From an uncultured Rhodospirillaceae bacterium (GTDB lineage: Bacteria; Pseudomonadota; Alphaproteobacteria; CAYNIS01): a DNA stretch of 39,161 nt. Position numbers and translations under genes: made by a program. The notes under the pieces were generated by a model. It made no database searches. It saw only the letters and a list, made by a program, of their open reading frames with translations, and had not been told where the DNA came from. Position 1 is the stretch's first letter. The number at the start of each line of letters is the position of its first letter. Location: positions 1-39,161 of the forward strand of contig CAYNIS010000001.1 of NCBI GenBank assembly GCA_964397055.1. The letters are read 5' to 3'. Of this stretch, positions 16,180 through 25,551 are shown in pieces.

Positions 16180-16300
16180 ATCGGCCTAGAGCATTTTCCA
16201 GCCGGACGGTATCGGCCCGGCGGTTCGCAAAAACGCTCAGATTCAATTGGTTGGCGCGCGTTCCGAACCGCGATGTGGGTCCACATCGCTGGAACATGCG

Positions 16301-17017
16301 CTAGCCGATCACGCCTTCCATCATGGCGCGGAAGCGGGGCAGAAGATGCGCCATCAAATAGGACGCGATCGCCTCGTCGGTCAGGTCGACCTCGACATCG
16401 TTGTCGAGCAGGCGGACACGGATCCCCCTGGCATGGCCGTCAGTACCCGCCTCGGCCGGCTTGATCTCGACCCCCTCGCGCAGCTGCTCGCCGGCGAGCT
16501 CCAGGACCACGCGCGACAGCGGATCCTCGCGCAGTTCCGACGGATTCTGGCGCAGCTCCTCCACCCCCTTGATCGTGCGCGGCAGGTGGATCGCGATCGG
16601 GTGATCGCGCACCACCTCCTCCCGCGCCCGGCCCGCCACTTCCAGGATCAGGCTGCGCAGCACCTCCGGCTCGTGCAACTCGACCTCGATCAGGTCGCGG
16701 ACATGGGTGATGAAGCGGTCGGTCAGCTCCGCCTTCAAGGACAGGATCGCGTCACGCACCGCCAGGCGCAGCGCCTCCTCCGCCGAGCGCTGCTGGCGCT
16801 CCGCGGTAGTGCGCGCGTCGGCGACGATGCGGTCGGCTTCCTCCCGCGCGGCCTGGATCAGGCCGTCGGCCTCACCCCTGGCCTGGGCCAGCAGCTGGTT
16901 CGCCTCCGCCCGCCCGGCGTCGATGCCCTGGGCGCGCAGGCGGTCGATCAGGCCCTGGACGCCGGCCTGGGTCGGCCGGCCGTCCTCCGCCTTGTCGGCA
17001 CTCGCCTCCATCGACAT
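16301..17017 (-). CDS. atpE: V/A-type ATPase subunit E-like stalk protein
   Basis: 238 aa. The N-terminal half is a charged Ala/Arg/Glu-rich helix (GIDAGRAEANQLLAQARGEADGLIQAAREEADRIVADARTTAERQ), followed by a globular C-terminal part. The start overlaps the K-subunit stop (TGATG). Confidence 0.6.
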   Translation of the reverse strand: MSMEASADKAEDGRPTQAGVQGLIDRLRAQGIDAGRAEANQLLAQARGEADGLIQAAREEADRIVADARTTAERQQRSAEEALRLAVRDAILSLKAELTDRFITHVRDLIEVELHEPEVLRSLILEVAGRAREEVVRDHPIAIHLPRTIKGVEELRQNPSELREDPLSRVVLELAGEQLREGVEIKPAEAGTDGHARGIRVRLLDNDVEVDLTDEAIASYLMAHLLPRFRAMMEGVIG

Positions 17018-17475
17018 CAGCCGCCCCCGGCGGCCGGGATGGAGCCGGCGACGACCAGCGCGAAGACGAAGGCGAAGACCGAGAAGCCCTCGACGATCGC
17101 GGCCGGGGCGATCGACAGGCCGAAGATCTCCGGCTTGTTCTTCGACGCGTGGATCGCCGACGCACAGCAGTCGCCCTGCTTCATCGCGCTGACCAGCAAC
17201 GCCAGGCCGGCGAACAGGCCGACCGCGAACAGCGCCGGGCCGTTGGTGACGGTGACCTCCCGCAGCAGCGCGAACATGATCACGATGCCGTAGATGGTCT
17301 GGGACGACGGCATGGCCGAGACCGCGATGTAGCGGCCGTAGCCGCCCTCGGTCTCAAGCATGGCGCCGGCGGCCGCCTGGCCCGCGCGGGCGCAGCCGAT
17401 CGCACTTCCGATGGCTCCCAGCGCCATGGCGCCGTAGATGCCGATCCAGCCTAGGCCGATGATGACGGGTTCCAG
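17017..17475 (-). CDS. atpK: V/A-type ATPase proteolipid subunit K (4-TM type)
   Basis: GAIGSAIGCARAGQAAAGAM ... SSQTIYGIVIMFALL ... KQGDCCASAI ... PAAIVEGFSVFAFVFALV gives two hairpins with one carboxylate (IVEGF). The first ATG (17427) would cut into TM1. AGGAGG (17483-17488) sits 7 nt upstream of an in-frame CTG at 17475, which is used here as a provisional start. Confidence 0.75.
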   Translation of the reverse strand: MEPVIIGLGWIGIYGAMALGAIGSAIGCARAGQAAAGAMLETEGGYGRYIAVSAMPSSQTIYGIVIMFALLREVTVTNGPALFAVGLFAGLALLVSAMKQGDCCASAIHASKNKPEIFGLSIAPAAIVEGFSVFAFVFALVVAGSIPAAGGG

Positions 17476-19277
17476 GGTTCGACCTCCTTCTTCGAAAACG
17501 GTCGGAAGGCGAAACCCTCCTCCCCGACACTCCAGTTGAAGAACTCGATCACGTTGAGCCGAAGCCCATGCACGACACCCGACATGATGGCGAGCGCGAA
17601 GTTGATGGCATGGCCGACGACCAGCGTCAAAAGCGCAATCAGGATGCCGAGGCCGGGCAGGTTCGCCGCCGCCTCCGCCGCCAGATTGTTGAAGGTGATC
17701 GCGAGCGACGCCGAGGCGAGGCCGAGCGCGAACAGGCGCAGGTAGGAGAGGACGTCGCCGAACGCCGCCGACAGGCCGGCCAGCGCCATGACCCCGTCGA
17801 TGGTGCGCCAGACCCAGCCCATCGGTGTCTTCGCCGGGAACGGCCGGGCCGAGGAGAAGACGACGATCAGACCGAAGCCGGCGATCATCAGCGGCCAGCC
17901 GAGGGTTTCGAGGGCGGCGCCCCAGCCGGTCCAGGCGGCGACGATCGCGGCCCCGCCGGCGAGCACCGAGATCCATCCGACCGGGGCCAGCGCCCGCGGG
18001 TGCGGGTAGCGGCGCCAGGCGGTCAGCGCGTTGGCGATCGCAACATGGCTGAGGCCGACGGCAAGCGCGATCGTCATCATCAGATCGAAATTGTTCATGT
18101 CGATGATGGCGAGCCGGCCGAGCAGGCTCTCCGGCGGGGGAGAGATGCCGAAATAGCTGCCGACCAGGACCCCCCAGGCGACCGATGCGACGACGATCGA
18201 CCGCGCCATGGTCGCGACCCGGTGGCCCGCCCGGCTCGACGCCAGCTTGCCCCAGCTCATCGCGACGACCAGGCCGAGGACGGCGGCATAGCCGGCGTCG
18301 GACATGATCATCGCGAAGAACGGCACGAAGGAGAGGTAGAGCGGGACCGAGGGGTCGACCTCCCGGTAGCCGGGCATCGAGTAGAACTTGACGACCTCCT
18401 CGCCGCCGGCGAACACCTCCGGGTTGCGCAGCAGGGTCGGCGGATTGTCGTCGTCCTCTATGTCCTCGATCATGAGGGCGAGGCCGCGGCTGTCGGCGAA
18501 GCGGTGGAGCTCGTCCAGGGCATCCTCCCCGACCCAGCCGCGCACGGCGAACACCTGCCCGTCGTTGTAGGCGTGGTCGGCGGCGGCCCTGCGCTGCTCG
18601 GTATCCTCCACCCTGGCCAGGGTGGCGGCGAGGAGATAGCACCAGCGGGTGAGGCCGAGGCGCCGATCGGCCAGATCCTCGAGCTCGATCACGATGTTCT
18701 CGGCCTCTGCCTCCAGCTCGCCCAGCGGCTGGCTGCCGGTATGGGTGCGGCCGACCGGCATGCCCGTCGGCTCGTCCTCCGCGAGGGCCACCACGTAGAT
18801 GTGCCGGCTATCCTCGGCGACGACCTCCCAGGCGACCTCCTCGATCGGCGGCATCTTGCGCATCTGGTAGCGCGGCACCCGATAGAACCACAGGCGCAGG
18901 CCCCTCAGTTCCTCGACCGGCGGGAAGTAGAAGTAGCCCCAGGGCTTGAGCGCCGCGATCCTGACGTTGAGGAAGTCGAGCTTCTGGGTCAGGTCCTCGA
19001 TCCGGTCCTTCAGGGTCAGCGCCTCGCGCGTCACCGTCGCCGCCTCGAAGAAGCTTGCATCCTTCACCTGGCGGCGGTTGCCACGCGCCTGCAAGAGATA
19101 CTGGAGCGCCTTGTAGGCGTCGGTCTGGGTGCGGCCCGGCAGGTTCTGGGCATCGTCGTCGGCATTGGCGAGGTCGACGAGATGCAGGGAGCCGAGGCGC
19201 TGCAGGTCCTCCAGCACGAACTCGGATTCGGCGGAAACACCGAACAGGGTGGCCTTCTTGAGGTCGATGATCGCCAT
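17451..19277 (-). CDS. atpI: V/A-type ATPase subunit I (a-subunit, stator/proton path)
   Basis: 608 aa with a soluble N-terminal half and a C-terminal polytopic half. It contains the conserved Arg helix DVLSYLRLFALGLAS. Confidence 0.85.
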   Translation of the reverse strand: MAIIDLKKATLFGVSAESEFVLEDLQRLGSLHLVDLANADDDAQNLPGRTQTDAYKALQYLLQARGNRRQVKDASFFEAATVTREALTLKDRIEDLTQKLDFLNVRIAALKPWGYFYFPPVEELRGLRLWFYRVPRYQMRKMPPIEEVAWEVVAEDSRHIYVVALAEDEPTGMPVGRTHTGSQPLGELEAEAENIVIELEDLADRRLGLTRWCYLLAATLARVEDTEQRRAAADHAYNDGQVFAVRGWVGEDALDELHRFADSRGLALMIEDIEDDDNPPTLLRNPEVFAGGEEVVKFYSMPGYREVDPSVPLYLSFVPFFAMIMSDAGYAAVLGLVVAMSWGKLASSRAGHRVATMARSIVVASVAWGVLVGSYFGISPPPESLLGRLAIIDMNNFDLMMTIALAVGLSHVAIANALTAWRRYPHPRALAPVGWISVLAGGAAIVAAWTGWGAALETLGWPLMIAGFGLIVVFSSARPFPAKTPMGWVWRTIDGVMALAGLSAAFGDVLSYLRLFALGLASASLAITFNNLAAEAAANLPGLGILIALLTLVVGHAINFALAIMSGVVHGLRLNVIEFFNWSVGEEGFAFRPFSKKEVEPWNPSSSA

Positions 19278-19291
19278 GTCCGCCCCTCCGC

Positions 19292-19972
19292 CTAGCGCTG
19301 CCAGTCGCCATAGCCGGGCGGCTCGCCCGCGACCCGCGGCGACGCCACGGCGGCTACCGCCTCGGCGCGGGCCTTCTCGTGCCGGGCCTTGGACAGCTTG
19401 GAGCGGACGACGGCCGCCTTCTCCGCATCGGAAAGCGCGATCCGGATGCGGCGGATGTTCTCCTTCGCCTGCGGGATCAGGACCTTGTCGAACAGGTTGA
19501 CGCGCTGCGTCGTCTTCAGGACCGCGACGTCCAGCAGCCGCTTGCGCTCGACCTGCAGGTCCCTCAGCAGGTGCAGGCGGATCACCGCCTCCATGATGTC
19601 GACCAGCTTGTCGACCCAGTGCGGCTTGGCGAACAGGGAATAGGGCAGGCGCGCCAGCCGCACCTCTTCCAGCACGGGAAGGCGCACGCCCAGGTGGTTC
19701 GCCTCCCCGAGCACGACCTCCTCGATGCGGACCAGGCCGGACAGTTCGACCCCGGTATAGGCCAGCATGGGCAGGGTCGCCTCGATCCGGCGTGTCTCCT
19801 CCGCGATCTTCTCGGTCGTATCGTTGAGGGCGCGCTTCTCGGCGTTGGCCTCCGCCATCAGCTGTTCGCGCTTCAGCTCCAGCGACGGAAGGTAGCGCCG
19901 GAACATGGAAAGGCTGCGCTTCTCCCGCGCGAGCCCCGCCTTGTTCAGCGCTACCTTGTTGCCGCCCGCCAT
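19292..19972 (-). CDS. atpD: V/A-type ATPase subunit D (central stalk)
   Basis: 226 aa with LNKAGLAREKRSLSMFRRYLPSLELKREQL and TTQRVNLFDKVLIPQ, characteristic of V-type D subunits. Confidence 0.85.
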   Translation of the reverse strand: MAGGNKVALNKAGLAREKRSLSMFRRYLPSLELKREQLMAEANAEKRALNDTTEKIAEETRRIEATLPMLAYTGVELSGLVRIEEVVLGEANHLGVRLPVLEEVRLARLPYSLFAKPHWVDKLVDIMEAVIRLHLLRDLQVERKRLLDVAVLKTTQRVNLFDKVLIPQAKENIRRIRIALSDAEKAAVVRSKLSKARHEKARAEAVAAVASPRVAGEPPGYGDWQR

Positions 19973-19997
19973 GTCGCCTGCTCCGCCCTGGCGCCGT

Positions 19998-21356
19998 TCA
20001 GGATGCCGCTGTGGCGGCGGGTTCCGCCCCGGCGGTGGCCGTCTTCTTCGGGAAGAAGCGGTCGACCAGCGACTGACGCATCAGAAGCTCCTCCGGCTCG
20101 AAGCACTCGGCCATGGTCGCCCAGGCGAGGTCGAGGGCGGCCTCGAGCGGCATCGAGACATCTATGCGCATGAAGCGTTCCCGGAAAAGTGCGCCGAACT
20201 TCAACAGTTTCTCGTCGAGGGCGGAAAGCTCGAACGCCATGGCCTGCTTCGACTCCGCCTCGCGCGCGCCGGCGTAGAACCGGATCATGGTGTTCATGAC
20301 CTGGCTGTGGTCCTCGCGCGTGACCTTGCCGATGACATGCTGCTTCAGCCGGGAGAGCGACCCGAACGGGTCGATCACGCTGTCGTGCAGATAGAACTGT
20401 CCCTCGGTGATGTAGCCGGTGTTGTCCGGCACCGGGTGGGTGACGTCGTCGCCCGGCATGGTCGTCACCGAGAGGATGGTGATCGACCCCGCCCCCCGGA
20501 AATCGCAGGCCTTTTCATAGCGTTGCGCGAGCTGGGTATAGAGGTCGCCCATGTAGCCGCGGTTGGACGGCACCCGGTCCATGGCGATGCCGATTTCCTT
20601 CATGGCGTCGGCATAGGCGGTCATGTCGGTCATCAGGACCAGGACGCGCTTGCCCTCGTCGACGGCGAAGCGTTCGGCGACCGCAAGGGCGAGGTCGGGG
20701 ACGATCAGGCGTTCGACGATCGGGTCGGAGGCGAGGTTGACGAACATCACCGTGCGGCCGAACACGCCCTCGTCCTCGAAGGTCGTGCGGAAGAAGTGAT
20801 AGTCGTCGAAAATCAGGCCGAGGCCGGCGAAGACCACGACGTCGGCATCCGCCTGGATGCCGATGCGCGACAAGAGTTGGTTGAACGGCTCCCCGGCGAT
20901 CGAGAAGATCGGGATCTTCTGACTTTCGACCAGACTGTTGAACAGGTCGATCATCGGCACCTTGGTGTGGATCATCTTGGACGGCATCACGCGCATCATC
21001 GGGTTGACCGGCGGGCCGTTGAGGTTGACCCGCGGCGCGTGGTCGAGAGCCGGGCCGCCGTCGATCGGCTCGCCTGAACCGCGGAAGATGCGGCCGAGGA
21101 TGTCGGGCGTGTAGACCGCCTGCATCAGCTCGCCGGTGAAGCGCACGGCGGCCCCGGTGGACAGCCCCCGGCCGCCGTCGAACACCTGGAGGGAGACGAC
21201 GTCGCCGTCGATCTGGATGACGCGGGCGAGGCTTTCCTCCCCCTCGATCTTGGTGACGATCGCCAGTTCGCCGAAGGTGACATCCCGGGCGCGCACCCGC
21301 ATGATGTCGCCGACAATGCCGAGAACCTGGGTGTGGTTGACCTTGAGAAGGCTCAT
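19998..21356 (-). CDS. atpB: V/A-type ATPase subunit B (non-catalytic)
   Basis: 452 aa from the ATG at 21356, which is preceded by AGGAGG. The protein has conserved alpha/beta ATPase-fold segments (IPIFSIAGEPFNQL, VLVLMTDMTAYADA, RGYMGDLYTQLAQRYE, ITEGQFYL). Confidence 0.9.
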   Translation of the reverse strand: MSLLKVNHTQVLGIVGDIMRVRARDVTFGELAIVTKIEGEESLARVIQIDGDVVSLQVFDGGRGLSTGAAVRFTGELMQAVYTPDILGRIFRGSGEPIDGGPALDHAPRVNLNGPPVNPMMRVMPSKMIHTKVPMIDLFNSLVESQKIPIFSIAGEPFNQLLSRIGIQADADVVVFAGLGLIFDDYHFFRTTFEDEGVFGRTVMFVNLASDPIVERLIVPDLALAVAERFAVDEGKRVLVLMTDMTAYADAMKEIGIAMDRVPSNRGYMGDLYTQLAQRYEKACDFRGAGSITILSVTTMPGDDVTHPVPDNTGYITEGQFYLHDSVIDPFGSLSRLKQHVIGKVTREDHSQVMNTMIRFYAGAREAESKQAMAFELSALDEKLLKFGALFRERFMRIDVSMPLEAALDLAWATMAECFEPEELLMRQSLVDRFFPKKTATAGAEPAATAAS

Positions 21357-21586
21357 CGGCGGGTCCCCTCCTGAGCAGGGTGGGTCGGCATGGGCTGTGG
21401 CCGGCGGCATCGCTGACGCACCGCAGCATTAGGCGAGCCGGCCCGACTGTGCAAGACGATGGGAGGCTGCCGGTCGGCCCGGGTCCGCCTCACGGCGACA
21501 CGGGATGAGGATTTCGAGCGGCGCCCGGACGGGGTGCCGGATGCCAGGCGCGCCGGGAGAGCGCGCACAACCTTGGGAGGAACAGG

Positions 21587-22447
21587 ATGGGCAAGTTCGA
21601 GAAGATTGCGGTCAAGCCGATCGCCGGGGCCCTGGGGGCGGAGATCGAGGGCGTCGACCTCGCCCGGCCGATGGACAACTCCACCGCCGAGGAGGTCCAT
21701 CGCGCCTTCCTCGACCACGCTGTGATCTTCTTCCGCGACCAGGACCTGACCCCCGACCAGCACAAGGCATTCGGCAGGCAGTTCGGCGAGCTGGTTGCCC
21801 ACCCCTACCTCAAGGCCCTCGACGGCCATCCGGAGATCATCGAGATCGTCAAGGAGGCTGAGGAGGTCGGCAAGTTCAACTTCGGCGGTGTCTGGCATTC
21901 CGACATGACCTACGTCGCCGAACCGCCGCTCGGCTCGGTGCTCTACGCCAAGGACGTCCCGCCCTATGGCGGCGACACCCTGTGGACGTCCATGTACCTC
22001 GCCTACGAGACGCTGTCGGACGGCATGAAGGCCCTGCTCGAGGGGCTGGTCGCGCAGCATACCGGCGGCACCCGCTACGGCGCGGCCGGCCATTTCGCCA
22101 AGGACGGCGACTACAAGTCGATGCAGATCAACAACACCTCGGACGCCGACCACCTGGTCGAGCACCCGCTGGTCCGCACCCATCCGGAGACCCGCCGCAA
22201 GGCGCTTTACGTCAACCCGAACTTCACGGTCGGCATCAAGGGCCTGACCGAGGCGGAGGCGAAGCCGATCCTCCAGTTCCTCTTCGACCACTCGGTCCGG
22301 CCGGAATTCACCTGCCGGTTCCGCTGGACGAAGAACGCCATCGCTTTCTGGGACAATCGCTGCACCCAGCATTTCGCCCTCAACGACTACGACGGCTTCC
22401 GCCGCCACATGCACCGGATCACGGTTGCCGGCGACCGCCCGTTCTGA
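21587..22447 (+). CDS. tauD: TauD/TfdA-family Fe(II)/2-oxoglutarate dioxygenase (taurine dioxygenase-like; substrate not determinable here)
   Basis: 286 aa, collinear with E. coli TauD as I recall it: FGEL..HPY, WHSDMTY (HxD), GGDTLWTS, HPLVRTHP, IAFWDNRCTQH, and the C-terminal MHRITVAGDRPF. GGGAGGA lies upstream of the ATG. Confidence 0.85.
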   Translation: MGKFEKIAVKPIAGALGAEIEGVDLARPMDNSTAEEVHRAFLDHAVIFFRDQDLTPDQHKAFGRQFGELVAHPYLKALDGHPEIIEIVKEAEEVGKFNFGGVWHSDMTYVAEPPLGSVLYAKDVPPYGGDTLWTSMYLAYETLSDGMKALLEGLVAQHTGGTRYGAAGHFAKDGDYKSMQINNTSDADHLVEHPLVRTHPETRRKALYVNPNFTVGIKGLTEAEAKPILQFLFDHSVRPEFTCRFRWTKNAIAFWDNRCTQHFALNDYDGFRRHMHRITVAGDRPF

Positions 22448-22471
22448 TCGGACCGCCGGTTCCGCTCGGAA

Positions 22472-22510
22472 CCTGCCGGGCCCGGGCCTTGCGGCCAGGG
22501 TCCCGGCAGG
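22472..22510. terminator. Hairpin between convergent genes (candidate bidirectional terminator)
   Basis: 9-bp stem cctgccggg (22472-22480) / cccggcagg (22502-22510) with a 21-nt GC-rich loop. There is no clear U-tract. Confidence 0.35.
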
Positions 22511-22522
22511 CCTCCGAACGGT

Positions 22523-22771
22523 TCAGCGCAGGACCGTGCCGAGAAGGATGGCGAAGAACGCCGGGGTCGCGATCAGCGCGAAATAGAAGGGGACAACCGG
22601 CCCAAGCGCGATCGTGCCCAGCAGAAGGGCGACCACCGCGATCAACAGGGATGCGATCAGCATAAGCGTCTTCGGCTCGATTCCCCCCATCTCCTCGTGG
22701 GGATCGGCAACCTCGGCGGGTGTGCCCGCTGCGGTGGTCGGGGTCGCGGGATCGGCGGTGTCGCTGGTCAT
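22523..22771 (-). CDS. Small two-TM membrane protein, unknown function
   Basis: 82 aa. A Pro/Thr/Ala-rich N-terminus is followed by LMLIASLLIAVVALLLGTIAL and FYFALIATPAFFAILLGTVL. Hand-read codons are mostly G/C-ending. The SD is weak. Confidence 0.55.
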   Translation of the reverse strand: MTSDTADPATPTTAAGTPAEVADPHEEMGGIEPKTLMLIASLLIAVVALLLGTIALGPVVPFYFALIATPAFFAILLGTVLR

Positions 22772-22786
22772 GGTCGAAAGTGTCCT

Positions 22787-22795
22787 AAAAAAAAA
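22787..22795. repeat. A9 homopolymer (T9 on the minus strand), 16 nt upstream of the small membrane gene start
   Basis: cctaaaaaaaaagtc; this is the only long homopolymer run I saw in the window. Confidence 0.9.
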
Positions 22796-23027
22796 GTCGG
22801 GTAGTCGGCAGGTCGGGTCCGGGGCGGCGACCGGCCGCCCGCAGGTTTCCGCACCTCGCCACAGCGCTCGTTAAGATTCGGCAAACGATATCCAGGCGAT
22901 TGTCCGTCTTCCGGTTGCGGCCGGACGCGGCCCCTTGCGCGCGGCTCCGGACCGTGATCTCAAGGCCCGGGAGGGTGCTGCCCCCGAACGAGTTGCCGCT
23001 GCCCGCGCTTTTCGCAGGACCGAGACG

Positions 23028-23708
23028 ATGGCCGACAGCAACCGCTACTACATGCTGATTGCGAGCCTGCCGGCGCTGACCCTGTCGTTCGAAGCGCCGC
23101 GCCCGCCGATCAGCCGGCCCCGGCTGGAGGCACGGTTGAACCAGCTGGCGCCGGCGGACCTCGCCGTCATCCAGGAGATGGAGACGTTCCTGCGCTGGGC
23201 CCGCCAGACCGGCGAAAGCAGCGATGCGGCGGTCAACGCCCACTATGCGGCGCTTCTGGCCTCCAGCGCCAACGCCTTCCTGACCGAGATCGTATCCTAT
23301 CGCATGGACATGCGGACCCTGATCGCGGCGTTGCGCCGGCGGGCGCGCGGGCTTGGGCCGCCTGGCCCTGCCGATGGCTGGCGATCCCAATGGGTGCGGG
23401 CGATCCGCCAGAACTGGACCCAGCCGGATTTTCGATTGGCCCCGGTGTTTCCGATCCTGCCCGAGCTCGCCCGCCTGTTGCGCGAGGGCGACAGCGTCGG
23501 CCTCGACCGCGCGATCCTGCGAGCGGTCTGGGATCGTCTTTCGCAGATGGAGCCGCGCGACCCGTTCTCGTTCGAGGCGATCCTGATCTACTTGTGCAAA
23601 TGGGACGTGGTCGACCGCTCGGCCGCCTATGACGGAACGGCGGCGTCCCTTCGCTTCACCCAGCTCGTCGAGGAGGCATTGGAAGGCCATGTCGCACACG
23701 TCGCCTGA
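23028..23708 (+). CDS. DUF2764-like protein (V-ATPase-operon-associated, presumed subunit C substitute)
   Basis: 226 aa from the ATG at 23028. The N-terminus NRYYMLIASLPALTL matches the YYYL(V/I)ASLP(E/A)L opening that I associate with DUF2764 proteins, which sit next to atpA in Bacteroidetes-type V-ATPase operons. The position immediately upstream of atpA fits. Confidence 0.55.
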   Translation: MADSNRYYMLIASLPALTLSFEAPRPPISRPRLEARLNQLAPADLAVIQEMETFLRWARQTGESSDAAVNAHYAALLASSANAFLTEIVSYRMDMRTLIAALRRRARGLGPPGPADGWRSQWVRAIRQNWTQPDFRLAPVFPILPELARLLREGDSVGLDRAILRAVWDRLSQMEPRDPFSFEAILIYLCKWDVVDRSAAYDGTAASLRFTQLVEEALEGHVAHVA

Positions 23709-25551
23709 GGTCGGGCCGGGCAGCGGCCCCGACGGTGGGGTTGTCGCTTCCGCCGCGTCGACACCGTCCCCGGGCCACAACGAGGCCGGGGCGGAGGGTG
23801 TCGACGCCCGCGTGGTGTCGGTGCGCGACAGCCTGATCAAGCTCGAAAGCCTCGGCGGCCCGATCATGAAGAACGAGGTCGCGTACATCGCCGTCGGCGA
23901 GGAGCGGCTGAAGGCCGAGGTCCTGCGCGTCGAGGGGGCTCAGGCCGACGCCCAGGTGTTCGAGGATACGCGCGGCGTCTCGGTCGGCGACACCGTCGAC
24001 CTGACCGGGGAAATGCTGTCGGTGGCACTTGGCCCGGGCCTGCTCGGCCAGGTCTTCGACGGCCTCCAGAACCCGCTCCAGGTGCTCGCCCAGAACCACG
24101 GCTACTTCCTGCCGCGCGGCGTCTATGCGCCGCCGCTCGACCCGGCCCACAAATGGGCGTTCACGCCGGTCGTGCGCGTCGGCGACAGACTGGATGCCGG
24201 CGACGTGATCGGGACGGTCGCGGAAGGGCGCTTCACCCACAAGATCATGGTGCCGTTCGACGAGCCCGGCCCGGTCGAGATCACCTGGGTCCAGGCCGGC
24301 CCGGTGACGATCGAGGAGCCGGTCGCCCGCATCCTGGACAGTCGCGGCCACACGCGCACGCTGACCATGGTCCAGCGCTGGCCGGTGCGCCGGCCGCTGC
24401 CGGATGTGATGACCCGCCGGCGGCTGGCGGAGCGGCAATACCCGTCGAAGCCGCTGACCACGACGATTCGCCTGATCGACACCTTCTTCCCGATCGCCGA
24501 GGGCGGGACCGCCTGCATCCCGGGGCCGTTCGGCGCCGGCAAGACGGTCCTGCAGGGTCTGATCGCGCGCTATTCCTCCGCCGACATCGTCATCGTCGTG
24601 GCCTGCGGGGAACGTGCCGGCGAGGTCGTCGAGACCATCACCGAGTTCCCGCGCCTGGATGACCCGCGCACCGGCGGCACGCTGATGGACCGCACGATCA
24701 TCGTCTGCAACACCTCGGCGATGCCGGTCGCCGCGCGCGAGGCGTCGATCTACACCGGTGTCACCATCGGCGAATACTACCGCCAGATGGGCTACTCGGT
24801 GCTGCTCCTGGCCGACAGCACGTCGCGCTGGGCCCAGGCGATGCGCGAGACCTCCGGCCGCATGGAGGAAATCCCCGGCGAGGAGGCGTTCCCGGCCTAT
24901 CTCGACAGTGCCATCAAGAGCCTCTACGAGCGTGCCGGGGTGCTGAAGACCCGGGAGTCGACCGGCAGTCTCACCCTCATCGGGACGGTCTCGCCGGCCG
25001 GCGGCAATTTCGAGGAACCGGTGACCCAGTCGACGCTGGCGACGGTCAAGGCGTTCCTGGCCCTGTCCTACGACCGCGCCTACAAGCGCTTCTATCCGGC
25101 GATCGACCCCCTGATCTCCTGGTCGCGCTACCTCGAACAGCTCAAGCCGCATTTCGAGGCGGAGGTGGAGGACGGCTGGACCGATCGGGTGAAGCGCCTT
25201 GCCGGGCTCCTGCAGCAGGGTGACACGATCGGCCGCATGATGCAGGTGACGGGCGAGGAGGGCATCAGCCTGGAGGATTTCATCACCCTCCAGCGCGCGA
25301 CCCTGGTCGACATGGCGTTCCTGCAGCAGGACGCCTTCGACGCCGTGGATGCCACCGTGCCGATGGCACGCCAAAGGGAGATGCTGTTGCTGCTCGACGA
25401 GGTCCTGCAGCGCCCGTTGCCCTATGACGACAAGGATGCCGTCCGCGACGCGTTCACCCGTCTCACCAACCTTATGAAGAACCTGAACTATGCCGCCAGC
25501 GGCACCGGCGAGTACCAGGACCTGATCGGTCAGGTGAAGACCGTTTGGTGA
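23689..25551 (+). CDS. atpA: V/A-type ATPase catalytic subunit A
   Basis: Walker A IPGPFGAGKTVLQ, then LLLADSTSRWAQAMRE, and the typical N-terminal barrel LKAEVLRVEGAQADAQVFEDTRGVSVGD. The ATG at 23689 gives a ~38-aa low-complexity N-extension and a 20-nt overlap with the upstream gene. GTG at 23812 or 23815 are alternative starts. Confidence 0.9.
   Translation: MSHTSPEVGPGSGPDGGVVASAASTPSPGHNEAGAEGVDARVVSVRDSLIKLESLGGPIMKNEVAYIAVGEERLKAEVLRVEGAQADAQVFEDTRGVSVGDTVDLTGEMLSVALGPGLLGQVFDGLQNPLQVLAQNHGYFLPRGVYAPPLDPAHKWAFTPVVRVGDRLDAGDVIGTVAEGRFTHKIMVPFDEPGPVEITWVQAGPVTIEEPVARILDSRGHTRTLTMVQRWPVRRPLPDVMTRRRLAERQYPSKPLTTTIRLIDTFFPIAEGGTACIPGPFGAGKTVLQGLIARYSSADIVIVVACGERAGEVVETITEFPRLDDPRTGGTLMDRTIIVCNTSAMPVAAREASIYTGVTIGEYYRQMGYSVLLLADSTSRWAQAMRETSGRMEEIPGEEAFPAYLDSAIKSLYERAGVLKTRESTGSLTLIGTVSPAGGNFEEPVTQSTLATVKAFLALSYDRAYKRFYPAIDPLISWSRYLEQLKPHFEAEVEDGWTDRVKRLAGLLQQGDTIGRMMQVTGEEGISLEDFITLQRATLVDMAFLQQDAFDAVDATVPMARQREMLLLLDEVLQRPLPYDDKDAVRDAFTRLTNLMKNLNYAASGTGEYQDLIGQVKTVW

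Follow-up and report, generated by a model that had tools for sequence, protein, structure and literature searches.

We analysed a contig of 39,161 nucleotides (nt) from an uncultured Rhodospirillaceae bacterium (CAYNIS010000001.1; the whole contig is called the window below) and found that it encodes a rotary ATPase of the vacuolar/archaeal type (V/A-ATPase, here also V-ATPase) whose genes stand back to back in two groups. The system is a seven-gene V/A-ATPase of the type that contains a DUF2764 subunit; it is complete and all its reading frames are intact. The seven genes are not collinear: atpB-D-I-K-E run on the minus strand (21356 to 16301), DUF2764-atpA on the plus strand (23028 to 25551), and 1.67 kb with two unrelated open reading frames (ORFs) lies between them. 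We regard it as probable that a local rearrangement split an intact operon of an accessory V/A-ATPase into these two back-to-back units. This is no new kind of system and a fairly ordinary operon break-up. The window belongs to a metagenome-assembled genome (MAG) of 700 contigs, which is 87% complete, with about 68% G+C and a size of about 4 Mb.

The genes were identified by Pfam and NCBIfam profile matches over the window proteins. The leftward group begins with atpB (19998-21356), which encodes the non-catalytic B subunit and is of the PRK02118 type, matching NF002555 with 678 bits against a cut-off of 431. It is followed by atpD for the central stalk (19292-19972; PF01813 with 116.8 bits, NF002565 with 186.9 against a cut-off of 189), atpI for the membrane a-type subunit (17451-19277; PF01496 with E = 6.5e-15, NF004429 aligned over residues 3-598), atpK for the double-hairpin proteolipid (17017-17475; two matches to PF00137, ATP-synt_C, and NF007200 with 175 against a cut-off of 108) and, as the last gene, atpE for the peripheral stalk subunit E (16301-17017). 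In the case of atpE both profile scores stay below the cut-offs (NF002424 with 88.6 against 241, PF01991 with 15.8 against 24.2); the gene was assigned as a positional orthologue and shows 34-52% identity over residues 16-237 to the gene at the same place in relatives. The rightward group consists of the DUF2764 gene (23028-23708; PF10962 with 36.5 bits against a cut-off of 24.1) and atpA for the catalytic A subunit (23689-25551; NF003220 with 756 bits against a cut-off of 470). The A subunit matches PF16886, PF00006 and PF22919, comprising the V/A-specific barrel-sandwich insert and the P-loop domain, and its best PDB matches are A-subunits of A/V-ATPases (E = 1e-141). Its longest ORF begins at 23629, and the likely start is the ATG at 23689, which has a GGAGG ahead of it. 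With respect to the NCBIfam cut-offs, B, K and A are above, D is 2 bits under, and E and I are under, yet these align over their full length to the positional orthologues. Genes for the subunits C (d), F or G are absent from the cluster, in which neighbouring genes of each group either overlap or are at most 25 nt apart.

The gap between the two groups holds a gene for a Fe(II)/2-oxoglutarate dioxygenase of the TauD/TfdA family (21587-22447, plus strand; PF02668 with E = 4e-71, NF007104 with 290 against a cut-off of 313) and an orphan ORF of 82 codons with two predicted transmembrane helices (22523-22771, minus strand). The latter is doubtful as a real gene: it has no homologue but itself among 5.8 billion proteins, and its G+C content at third codon positions (GC3) is 0.83, compared with 0.91-0.95 in the neighbouring genes. 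A first, sequence-only reading of this DNA had listed the seven subunits as present but not collinear, with a TauD-like dioxygenase and a small gene with two transmembrane helices filling the gap, and the analysis agrees with it in each of these points, as it does with its gene coordinates.

In order to define the usual arrangement we compared the window with 160 related loci. A scan with the A subunit, taking one genome per species, delivered 80 loci with A at 61-70% identity, and a scan of metagenomes added 80 more; all seven window proteins were then placed in these loci by tblastn. The first 80 loci come from Planctomycetota, Nitrospirota, several orders of Gammaproteobacteria, Desulfobacterota, Myxococcota, Cyanobacteria, Gemmatimonadota, Chlamydiota and a few Alphaproteobacteria. 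Wherever the flanking sequence sufficed, the locus shows B-D-I-K-E-DUF2764-A, all on the same strand. This order is common to more than 100 loci of at least ten phyla. Counted over informative loci, the junction B|D is joined in 99 and broken in one, D|I joined in 104 and I|K in 113 with no break in either, K|E joined in 116 and broken in one, E|DUF2764 joined in 124 and broken in three (127 informative loci), and DUF2764|A joined in all 137. A V-ATPase gene on the opposite strand was seen in none of the 160 loci, and the TauD gene is absent from all of them. The TauD gene is thus a passenger and not a part of the pump.

The comparison changes one part of the sequence-only reading and leaves another standing. 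That reading had taken the position of E behind K as an anomaly, using a different order as the reference; since the order of the relatives is B-D-I-K-E-DUF2764-A, E behind K is normal for the clade. The window departs from this order in one respect only: B-D-I-K-E points the other way from DUF2764-A, and the operon is broken between E and DUF2764. The split into two divergently oriented groups, which that reading had noted, stands, and the back-to-back layout is unusual for the family. However, other splits of the operon exist, including one at the same junction, and a split as such is not unprecedented. Among the 161 loci no other shows the back-to-back form, but this operon has been broken up several times independently.

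Seven-gene V-ATPases are known from Bacteroidota and Chlamydiota, and the Bacteroides fragilis operon is an example of the type with the order E-DUF2764-A-B-D-I-K (PMC10790697). These systems have the same seven components, likewise without C, F and G, and are hit by the same models (NF002555, NF007200, NF002565, NF002424 and the Pfam family DUF2764). The clade of the window differs in gene order, B-D-I-K-E-DUF2764-A being a circular permutation of the Bacteroidota order, and in the window B-D-I-K-E is flipped in addition. Neither the permuted gene order nor the split was found described in the literature searched, and the operon order of the clade appears to be previously undescribed there. 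The permuted operons of Planctomycetota, Nitrospirota, Chromatiaceae, Methylococcales, Thiodiazotropha, Desulfobacterota, Cyanobacteria, Gemmatimonadota and others contain orthologues of all seven window genes (A 61-70%, B 63-76% and K 57-77% identical). The spacing within the blocks is the same as in the window, and DUF2764 and A are adjacent with a small gap at most. These operons are collinear on one strand; only in the window do the blocks stand back to back, separated by two foreign genes.

If the segment from E through B is turned around, all seven genes come to lie on one strand in the order of the relatives, and the TauD gene and the small ORF remain between E and DUF2764. If the turned segment extends from E through the small ORF, the intact seven-gene order is restored and the TauD gene comes to lie divergently upstream of B. 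As flipping B-D-I-K-E leads back to the order of the clade, a single inversion with a breakpoint in the short spacer between E and DUF2764 is most likely as the most economical history. Such an inversion would have had one breakpoint between E and DUF2764 and the second upstream of B, and TauD and the small ORF beside the block may have been carried along. The B-D-I-K-E block would thereby have been turned around, leaving atpB-D-I-K-E and DUF2764-atpA as back-to-back units. The zone of the right-hand breakpoint (22772-23027) contains no remnant of atpE, no copy of a dispersed repeat that is described below and no long inverted repeat. A run of nine A residues at 22787-22795, just upstream of the start of the 82-codon ORF, is the only long homopolymer seen in this GC-rich stretch. 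An inversion mediated by repeats was considered and set aside: no inverted repeat at the breakpoints was better than chance, and the dispersed repeat of 120 nt has no second copy in the window.

Several other loci depart from the collinear form. In the Alphaproteobacteria bacterium GSL.Bin18 (G061), B-D-I-K-E lie on one contig and DUF2764-A on another, behind unrelated genes of the same strand. Its sister genome G062 has the operon in three pieces, B-D (L099, 8725-10676), I-K-E (L187, 2688-5657) and DUF2764-A (L014, 9298-11779), all with open frames, and a metagenome contig (L121) has 91% DNA identity to a piece of G062. G062 is labelled Mycobacteriaceae, and as it is the sister of an alphaproteobacterial MAG in the V-ATPase tree, this bin label is doubtful. 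Three further loci are cut elsewhere. A Planctomycetaceae MAG has E-DUF2764-A, but B, D, I and K are missing from the 8.5 kb ahead of it; a fragment of B is found on another contig and the I gene was not found in this genome. In a Dapis cyanobacterium A stands apart from B-D-I-K-E-DUF2764. In Thiorhodococcus B is on the same contig, more than 5 kb upstream of D and beyond the analysed locus.

The alphaproteobacterial cases share with the window the cut between E and DUF2764 and the intact frames. They differ in that the pieces are on different contigs with different neighbours, and in that G062 is additionally cut between D and I. In a tree of A and B the window forms a long branch (0.5) at an unresolved fork within a clade of 42 rows, and G061 and G062 are sisters that adjoin a collinear operon of Azospirillaceae. 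A tree forced to unite the window with G061 and G062 is worse by 59 log-likelihood units, and the approximately unbiased (AU) test gives p = 0.028 for this three-genome clade and p = 0.003 once the Azospirillaceae row (L061) is joined to it. Shared inheritance of the split is disfavoured by both values, and because the AU test disfavours the grouping, the window was probably cut at E|DUF2764 independently of G061 and G062. The genomes compared include none from the genus, family or order of the window host. No relative with more than 70% identity in A was found in the genome-contig scan and two metagenome scans, with a ceiling of about 76% for B.

Since the window comes from a MAG, it has to be asked whether the layout is real. 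A contig from the Logan assemblies (run SRR7048221), which is an independent assembly, is 100% identical over its 1399 nt to positions 21221-22619 and spans the start of B, the TauD gene and part of the small ORF. In an assembly artefact the contig would have been wrongly joined or flipped and the true operon would be collinear. The fragmentation and incompleteness of the MAG speak for this, as does the position of a repeat: it lies precisely where the block ends behind E, occurs more than 80 times in the genome and is of a kind at which chimeric joins typically arise. The stretch 22620-23027, moreover, has no support from a second assembly. A wrong join at the repeat (16186-16305), however, would alter only sequence beyond E and leave the back-to-back layout of B and DUF2764 unaffected. 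Nor do inverted repeats flank the block, as an assembler flip would need; the genes at the junctions are well formed and follow the codon usage of the host, and the Logan contig is identical over the start of B, the TauD gene and the small ORF. We consider an artefact quite unlikely, and as far as it can be checked the split is real. The roughly 400 nt from 22620 to 23027 contain no repeat that is likely to mislead an assembler. Look-ups of the exact proteins of the small ORF, E and DUF2764 led to no other contig.

The two groups were examined for intactness and for a common origin. Conservation was counted over alignment columns with a conservation of 95% or more among 68 relatives. The window keeps 221 of 224 such columns in A, 172 of 174 in B, all 69 in I, 48 of 49 in K, 30 of 31 in D, all 10 in E and 13 of 15 in DUF2764. 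The retention is thus 97-100% in six subunits, and none of the values falls outside the spread seen in collinear relatives. Every subunit is full-length in the alignment, without a frameshift, and neither half is degraded, a possibility that had been raised from the sequence. The GC3 of the seven genes is 0.86-0.95, like that of the flanking genes; it bears out the earlier remark that composition and codon usage match the window and do not indicate an obvious recent import. This fits a long residence of a compositionally ameliorated cluster with no sign of decay.

One may also suppose that the pump is being lost, the split having uncoupled the expression of A and B, and that the genes are drifting without being visibly broken. 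The branch of 0.5 against a median of 0.21 would suit such a process, as would a CTG start codon of atpK where a relative has ATG, the two conserved columns missing in DUF2764 and an F-type ATP synthase in the same genome that makes the pump dispensable. On the other hand, seven frames have stayed full-length over 8 kb, six subunits (A, B, I, K, D and E) keep their conserved positions like the collinear relatives, and a GC3 of 0.91-0.95 speaks for long residence without decay. Branches of equal length are found in other isolated lineages (0.57 for G039, 0.59 for L026), and the relative with three pieces also has intact frames. Taken together, ongoing loss is unlikely.

For the common history of the two groups, separate trees were calculated for B-D-I-K-E and DUF2764-A. 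Both list the rows L021, L084 and L029 among the five nearest to the window by path, and the end branches of the window are 0.61 and 0.49. No second copy or leftover of any V-ATPase subunit exists in the genome. The identical nearest rows and the lack of extra subunit copies point to one history shared by both halves. That B-D-I-K-E and DUF2764-A were acquired from different donors is extremely improbable. Their opposite strands, the unrelated genes between them and the wide transfer of this family between phyla could be read in that way, but both half-trees name the same neighbours with similar branch lengths, duplicate or leftover subunit genes are missing, and the two pieces are exactly complementary and only 1.7 kb apart.

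In the rearranged state the leftward group atpB-D-I-K-E would be driven from the divergent region of 230 nt that it shares with the TauD gene (21357-21586), which on the orientation of the genes is its presumed promoter region. DUF2764-atpA would be driven from the 256 nt upstream of DUF2764 (22772-23027). The balance between A and B would then have to be set by two promoters and not by co-transcription. Inside each unit the genes are tightly packed or overlapping and translational coupling would be kept: I and K overlap by 25 nt, K and E in the sequence TGATG, and DUF2764 and A by 20 nt. A Shine-Dalgarno sequence GGAGG is located 9 nt before the ATG of atpB at 21356, and another GGAGG precedes atpA. 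For atpK the apparent start is a CTG at 17475, 7 nt after AGGAGG, and no ATG, GTG or TTG occurs where the orthologues start (17473-17488, minus strand); atpK of G061 has an ATG at the position of the CTG. An operator common to both upstream regions was also looked for, and no match was better than those of shuffled sequences.

Behind the TauD gene lies a GC-rich hairpin (22462-22521), within the 75 nt that separate the stop of this gene from the convergent stop of the small ORF. The stretch 22445-22525 folds with -53 kcal/mol (z = -4.5; none of 200 shuffles as good) and has no U-tract. Judged by this predicted fold, the hairpin is likely to be a two-way transcription stop or an RNA stabiliser, and it makes read-through from TauD into DUF2764-A somewhat less likely. 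Such read-through is the core of a further explanation, in which the region of 230 nt between B and TauD fires both ways and TauD transcripts read into DUF2764-atpA. The halves would then be co-regulated and coupled to TauD. TauD, DUF2764 and A do share a strand, the intervening small ORF, an orphan, is doubtful as a gene, and no promoter-like site was recognised upstream of DUF2764. Against this stand the very stable hairpin after the TauD stop, the gap of 580 nt between TauD and DUF2764 and the coding-like GC pattern of the small ORF. Shared control of this kind seems rather unlikely to us.

Some observations weigh against the proposed split into two separately transcribed units by an inversion. 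The two units of transcription are inferred from the orientation of the genes only. A scan for sigma-70-like consensus sequences was negative in 21357-21586 and in 22772-23027, and the two upstream regions have no motif in common (alignment score 22, shuffle mean 22.5). The CTG start is odd for atpK, which encodes the most abundant subunit. At the two breakpoints no repeats were found, and both the mechanism of the inversion and its exact extent are thus inferences. The independent assembly support stops at 22619, so that the junction from the small ORF to DUF2764 (22620-23027) is known from one assembly. Finally, the window has a branch of 0.5, and its closest relatives reach 70% in A at most and about 76% in B, distances too great for gauging recent purifying selection.

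Regarding the host, genes for F1 alpha and beta are located on other contigs of the genome, which answers the question whether an F-type ATPase is also present; the remaining PF00006 matches are FliI and Rho. Because the cell has an F-type ATP synthase, the V-type enzyme is an accessory pump beside it. Among 60 relatives at the level of the class only two have a V-ATPase, and the tree of this family cuts across phyla. The patchy distribution within the class and the tree suggest horizontal spread with frequent transfer of whole operons.

A well-studied enzyme for comparison is the Na+ V-ATPase of Enterococcus hirae (ntp genes, NtpK ring, PDB 2BL2), likewise a rotary V-type enzyme beside an F-type ATP synthase, with a double-hairpin proteolipid that carries one carboxylate. 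The residues of the E. hirae proteolipid that coordinate Na+ are L61, T64, Q65, Q110 and E139, together with Y68 (PMC9006882). In the alignment of the window K protein to NtpK the positions L61/T64/Q65/Y68/Q110/E139 correspond to M/S/Q/Y/Q/E. Hence Q65, Y68, Q110 and E139, four of the six, are identical, Ser in place of T64 is conservative, and L61 is replaced by Met. Met at this position is known from H+-coupled forms and from Halomonas elongata (PMC9006882). The E. hirae enzyme further differs in having C, F and G, no DUF2764 and another gene order. On the basis of these residues, which resemble a Na+ site, a Na+ export pump is favoured: the enzyme is most likely an ATP-driven exporter of Na+ (or H+), its ion and pumping direction being read from the sequence.

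The DUF2764 protein is 23-43% identical to the orthologues at the same position. Its AlphaFold model is all-helical with ten helices (predicted local distance difference test score, pLDDT, of 88.7; predicted template modelling score, pTM, of 0.81). A profile of 30 DUF2764 orthologues gave no match to PDB sequences at E<=10, and a Foldseek search of the model against PDB returned nothing better than E = 0.9, subunits C/d included. With these two results, the idea that DUF2764 might be a divergent subunit C/d was discarded. The gene stands directly before atpA; this adjacency is kept in 137 of 137 informative relatives, and in the window its stop overlaps the start of atpA. From the constant adjacency one may suspect that DUF2764 serves A as a dedicated partner and has a fold not described so far. 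Only tentatively, and as the less probable view, we put forward that DUF2764 and A may be an obligate co-translated pair, in which DUF2764 could be a structurally new partner of A, with a role as assembly factor or, in place of C, F or G, as an element of the stator or collar. The operon was cut just upstream of this pair in two lineages that are probably independent, which points to E|DUF2764 as a place where it broke twice. Should the pair exist, the DUF2764-atpA unit would be a natural minimal module and not an accident.

ATP synthase operons of the F-type are split in well-known cases: many Alphaproteobacteria have separate Fo and F1 loci, and cyanobacteria have atp1 and atp2. As presumably in the window, a rotary ATPase of fixed stoichiometry is made there from more than one transcription unit. 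The enzyme family is another one, and those splits are old and lineage-wide, whereas that of the window is so far seen in a single genome. The window adds that a rotary ATPase with fixed A3B3 stoichiometry appears to tolerate A and B on opposite strands, under control that is presumably separate. For a large and widely transferred clade of V-ATPases, the reference gene order is corrected to B-D-I-K-E-DUF2764-A. These findings might also become relevant for annotation, as V-ATPase clusters in MAGs that look incomplete need to be checked for a second piece before they are labelled as degraded.

A few further features of the window and its relatives are mentioned here. The left edge of the rearranged block is marked by the dispersed, structured repeat of about 120 nt (16186-16305), which touches the stop codon of atpE. 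In the MAG, blastn gives 82 matches to it at E<=1e-10, of which 54 are almost complete; they have 85-94% identity and occur in both orientations and sometimes in tandem. One copy only is located in the window. As RNA it folds with -64 kcal/mol (z = -4.2), and no Rfam family matched in the window, the repeat included. In G039, a complete genome of the same class as the window, the atpB frame (L100, 6364-7791) has one internal TAA, and the operon is otherwise collinear and intact. Next to the block, the first 36 codons (16286-16179) of an ORF of 263 codons with an HNH motif consist of the dispersed repeat, and because of this overlap the HNH gene probably starts further in. Paralogues of the HNH and TauD genes occur together on contig C255, which was examined as a sign of an older neighbourhood; their architecture and gene order differ, and the case was treated as a coincidence. 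Another contig of 4.4 kb (C335) carries three tandem paralogues of the HNH-motif protein, which are 42-53% identical.

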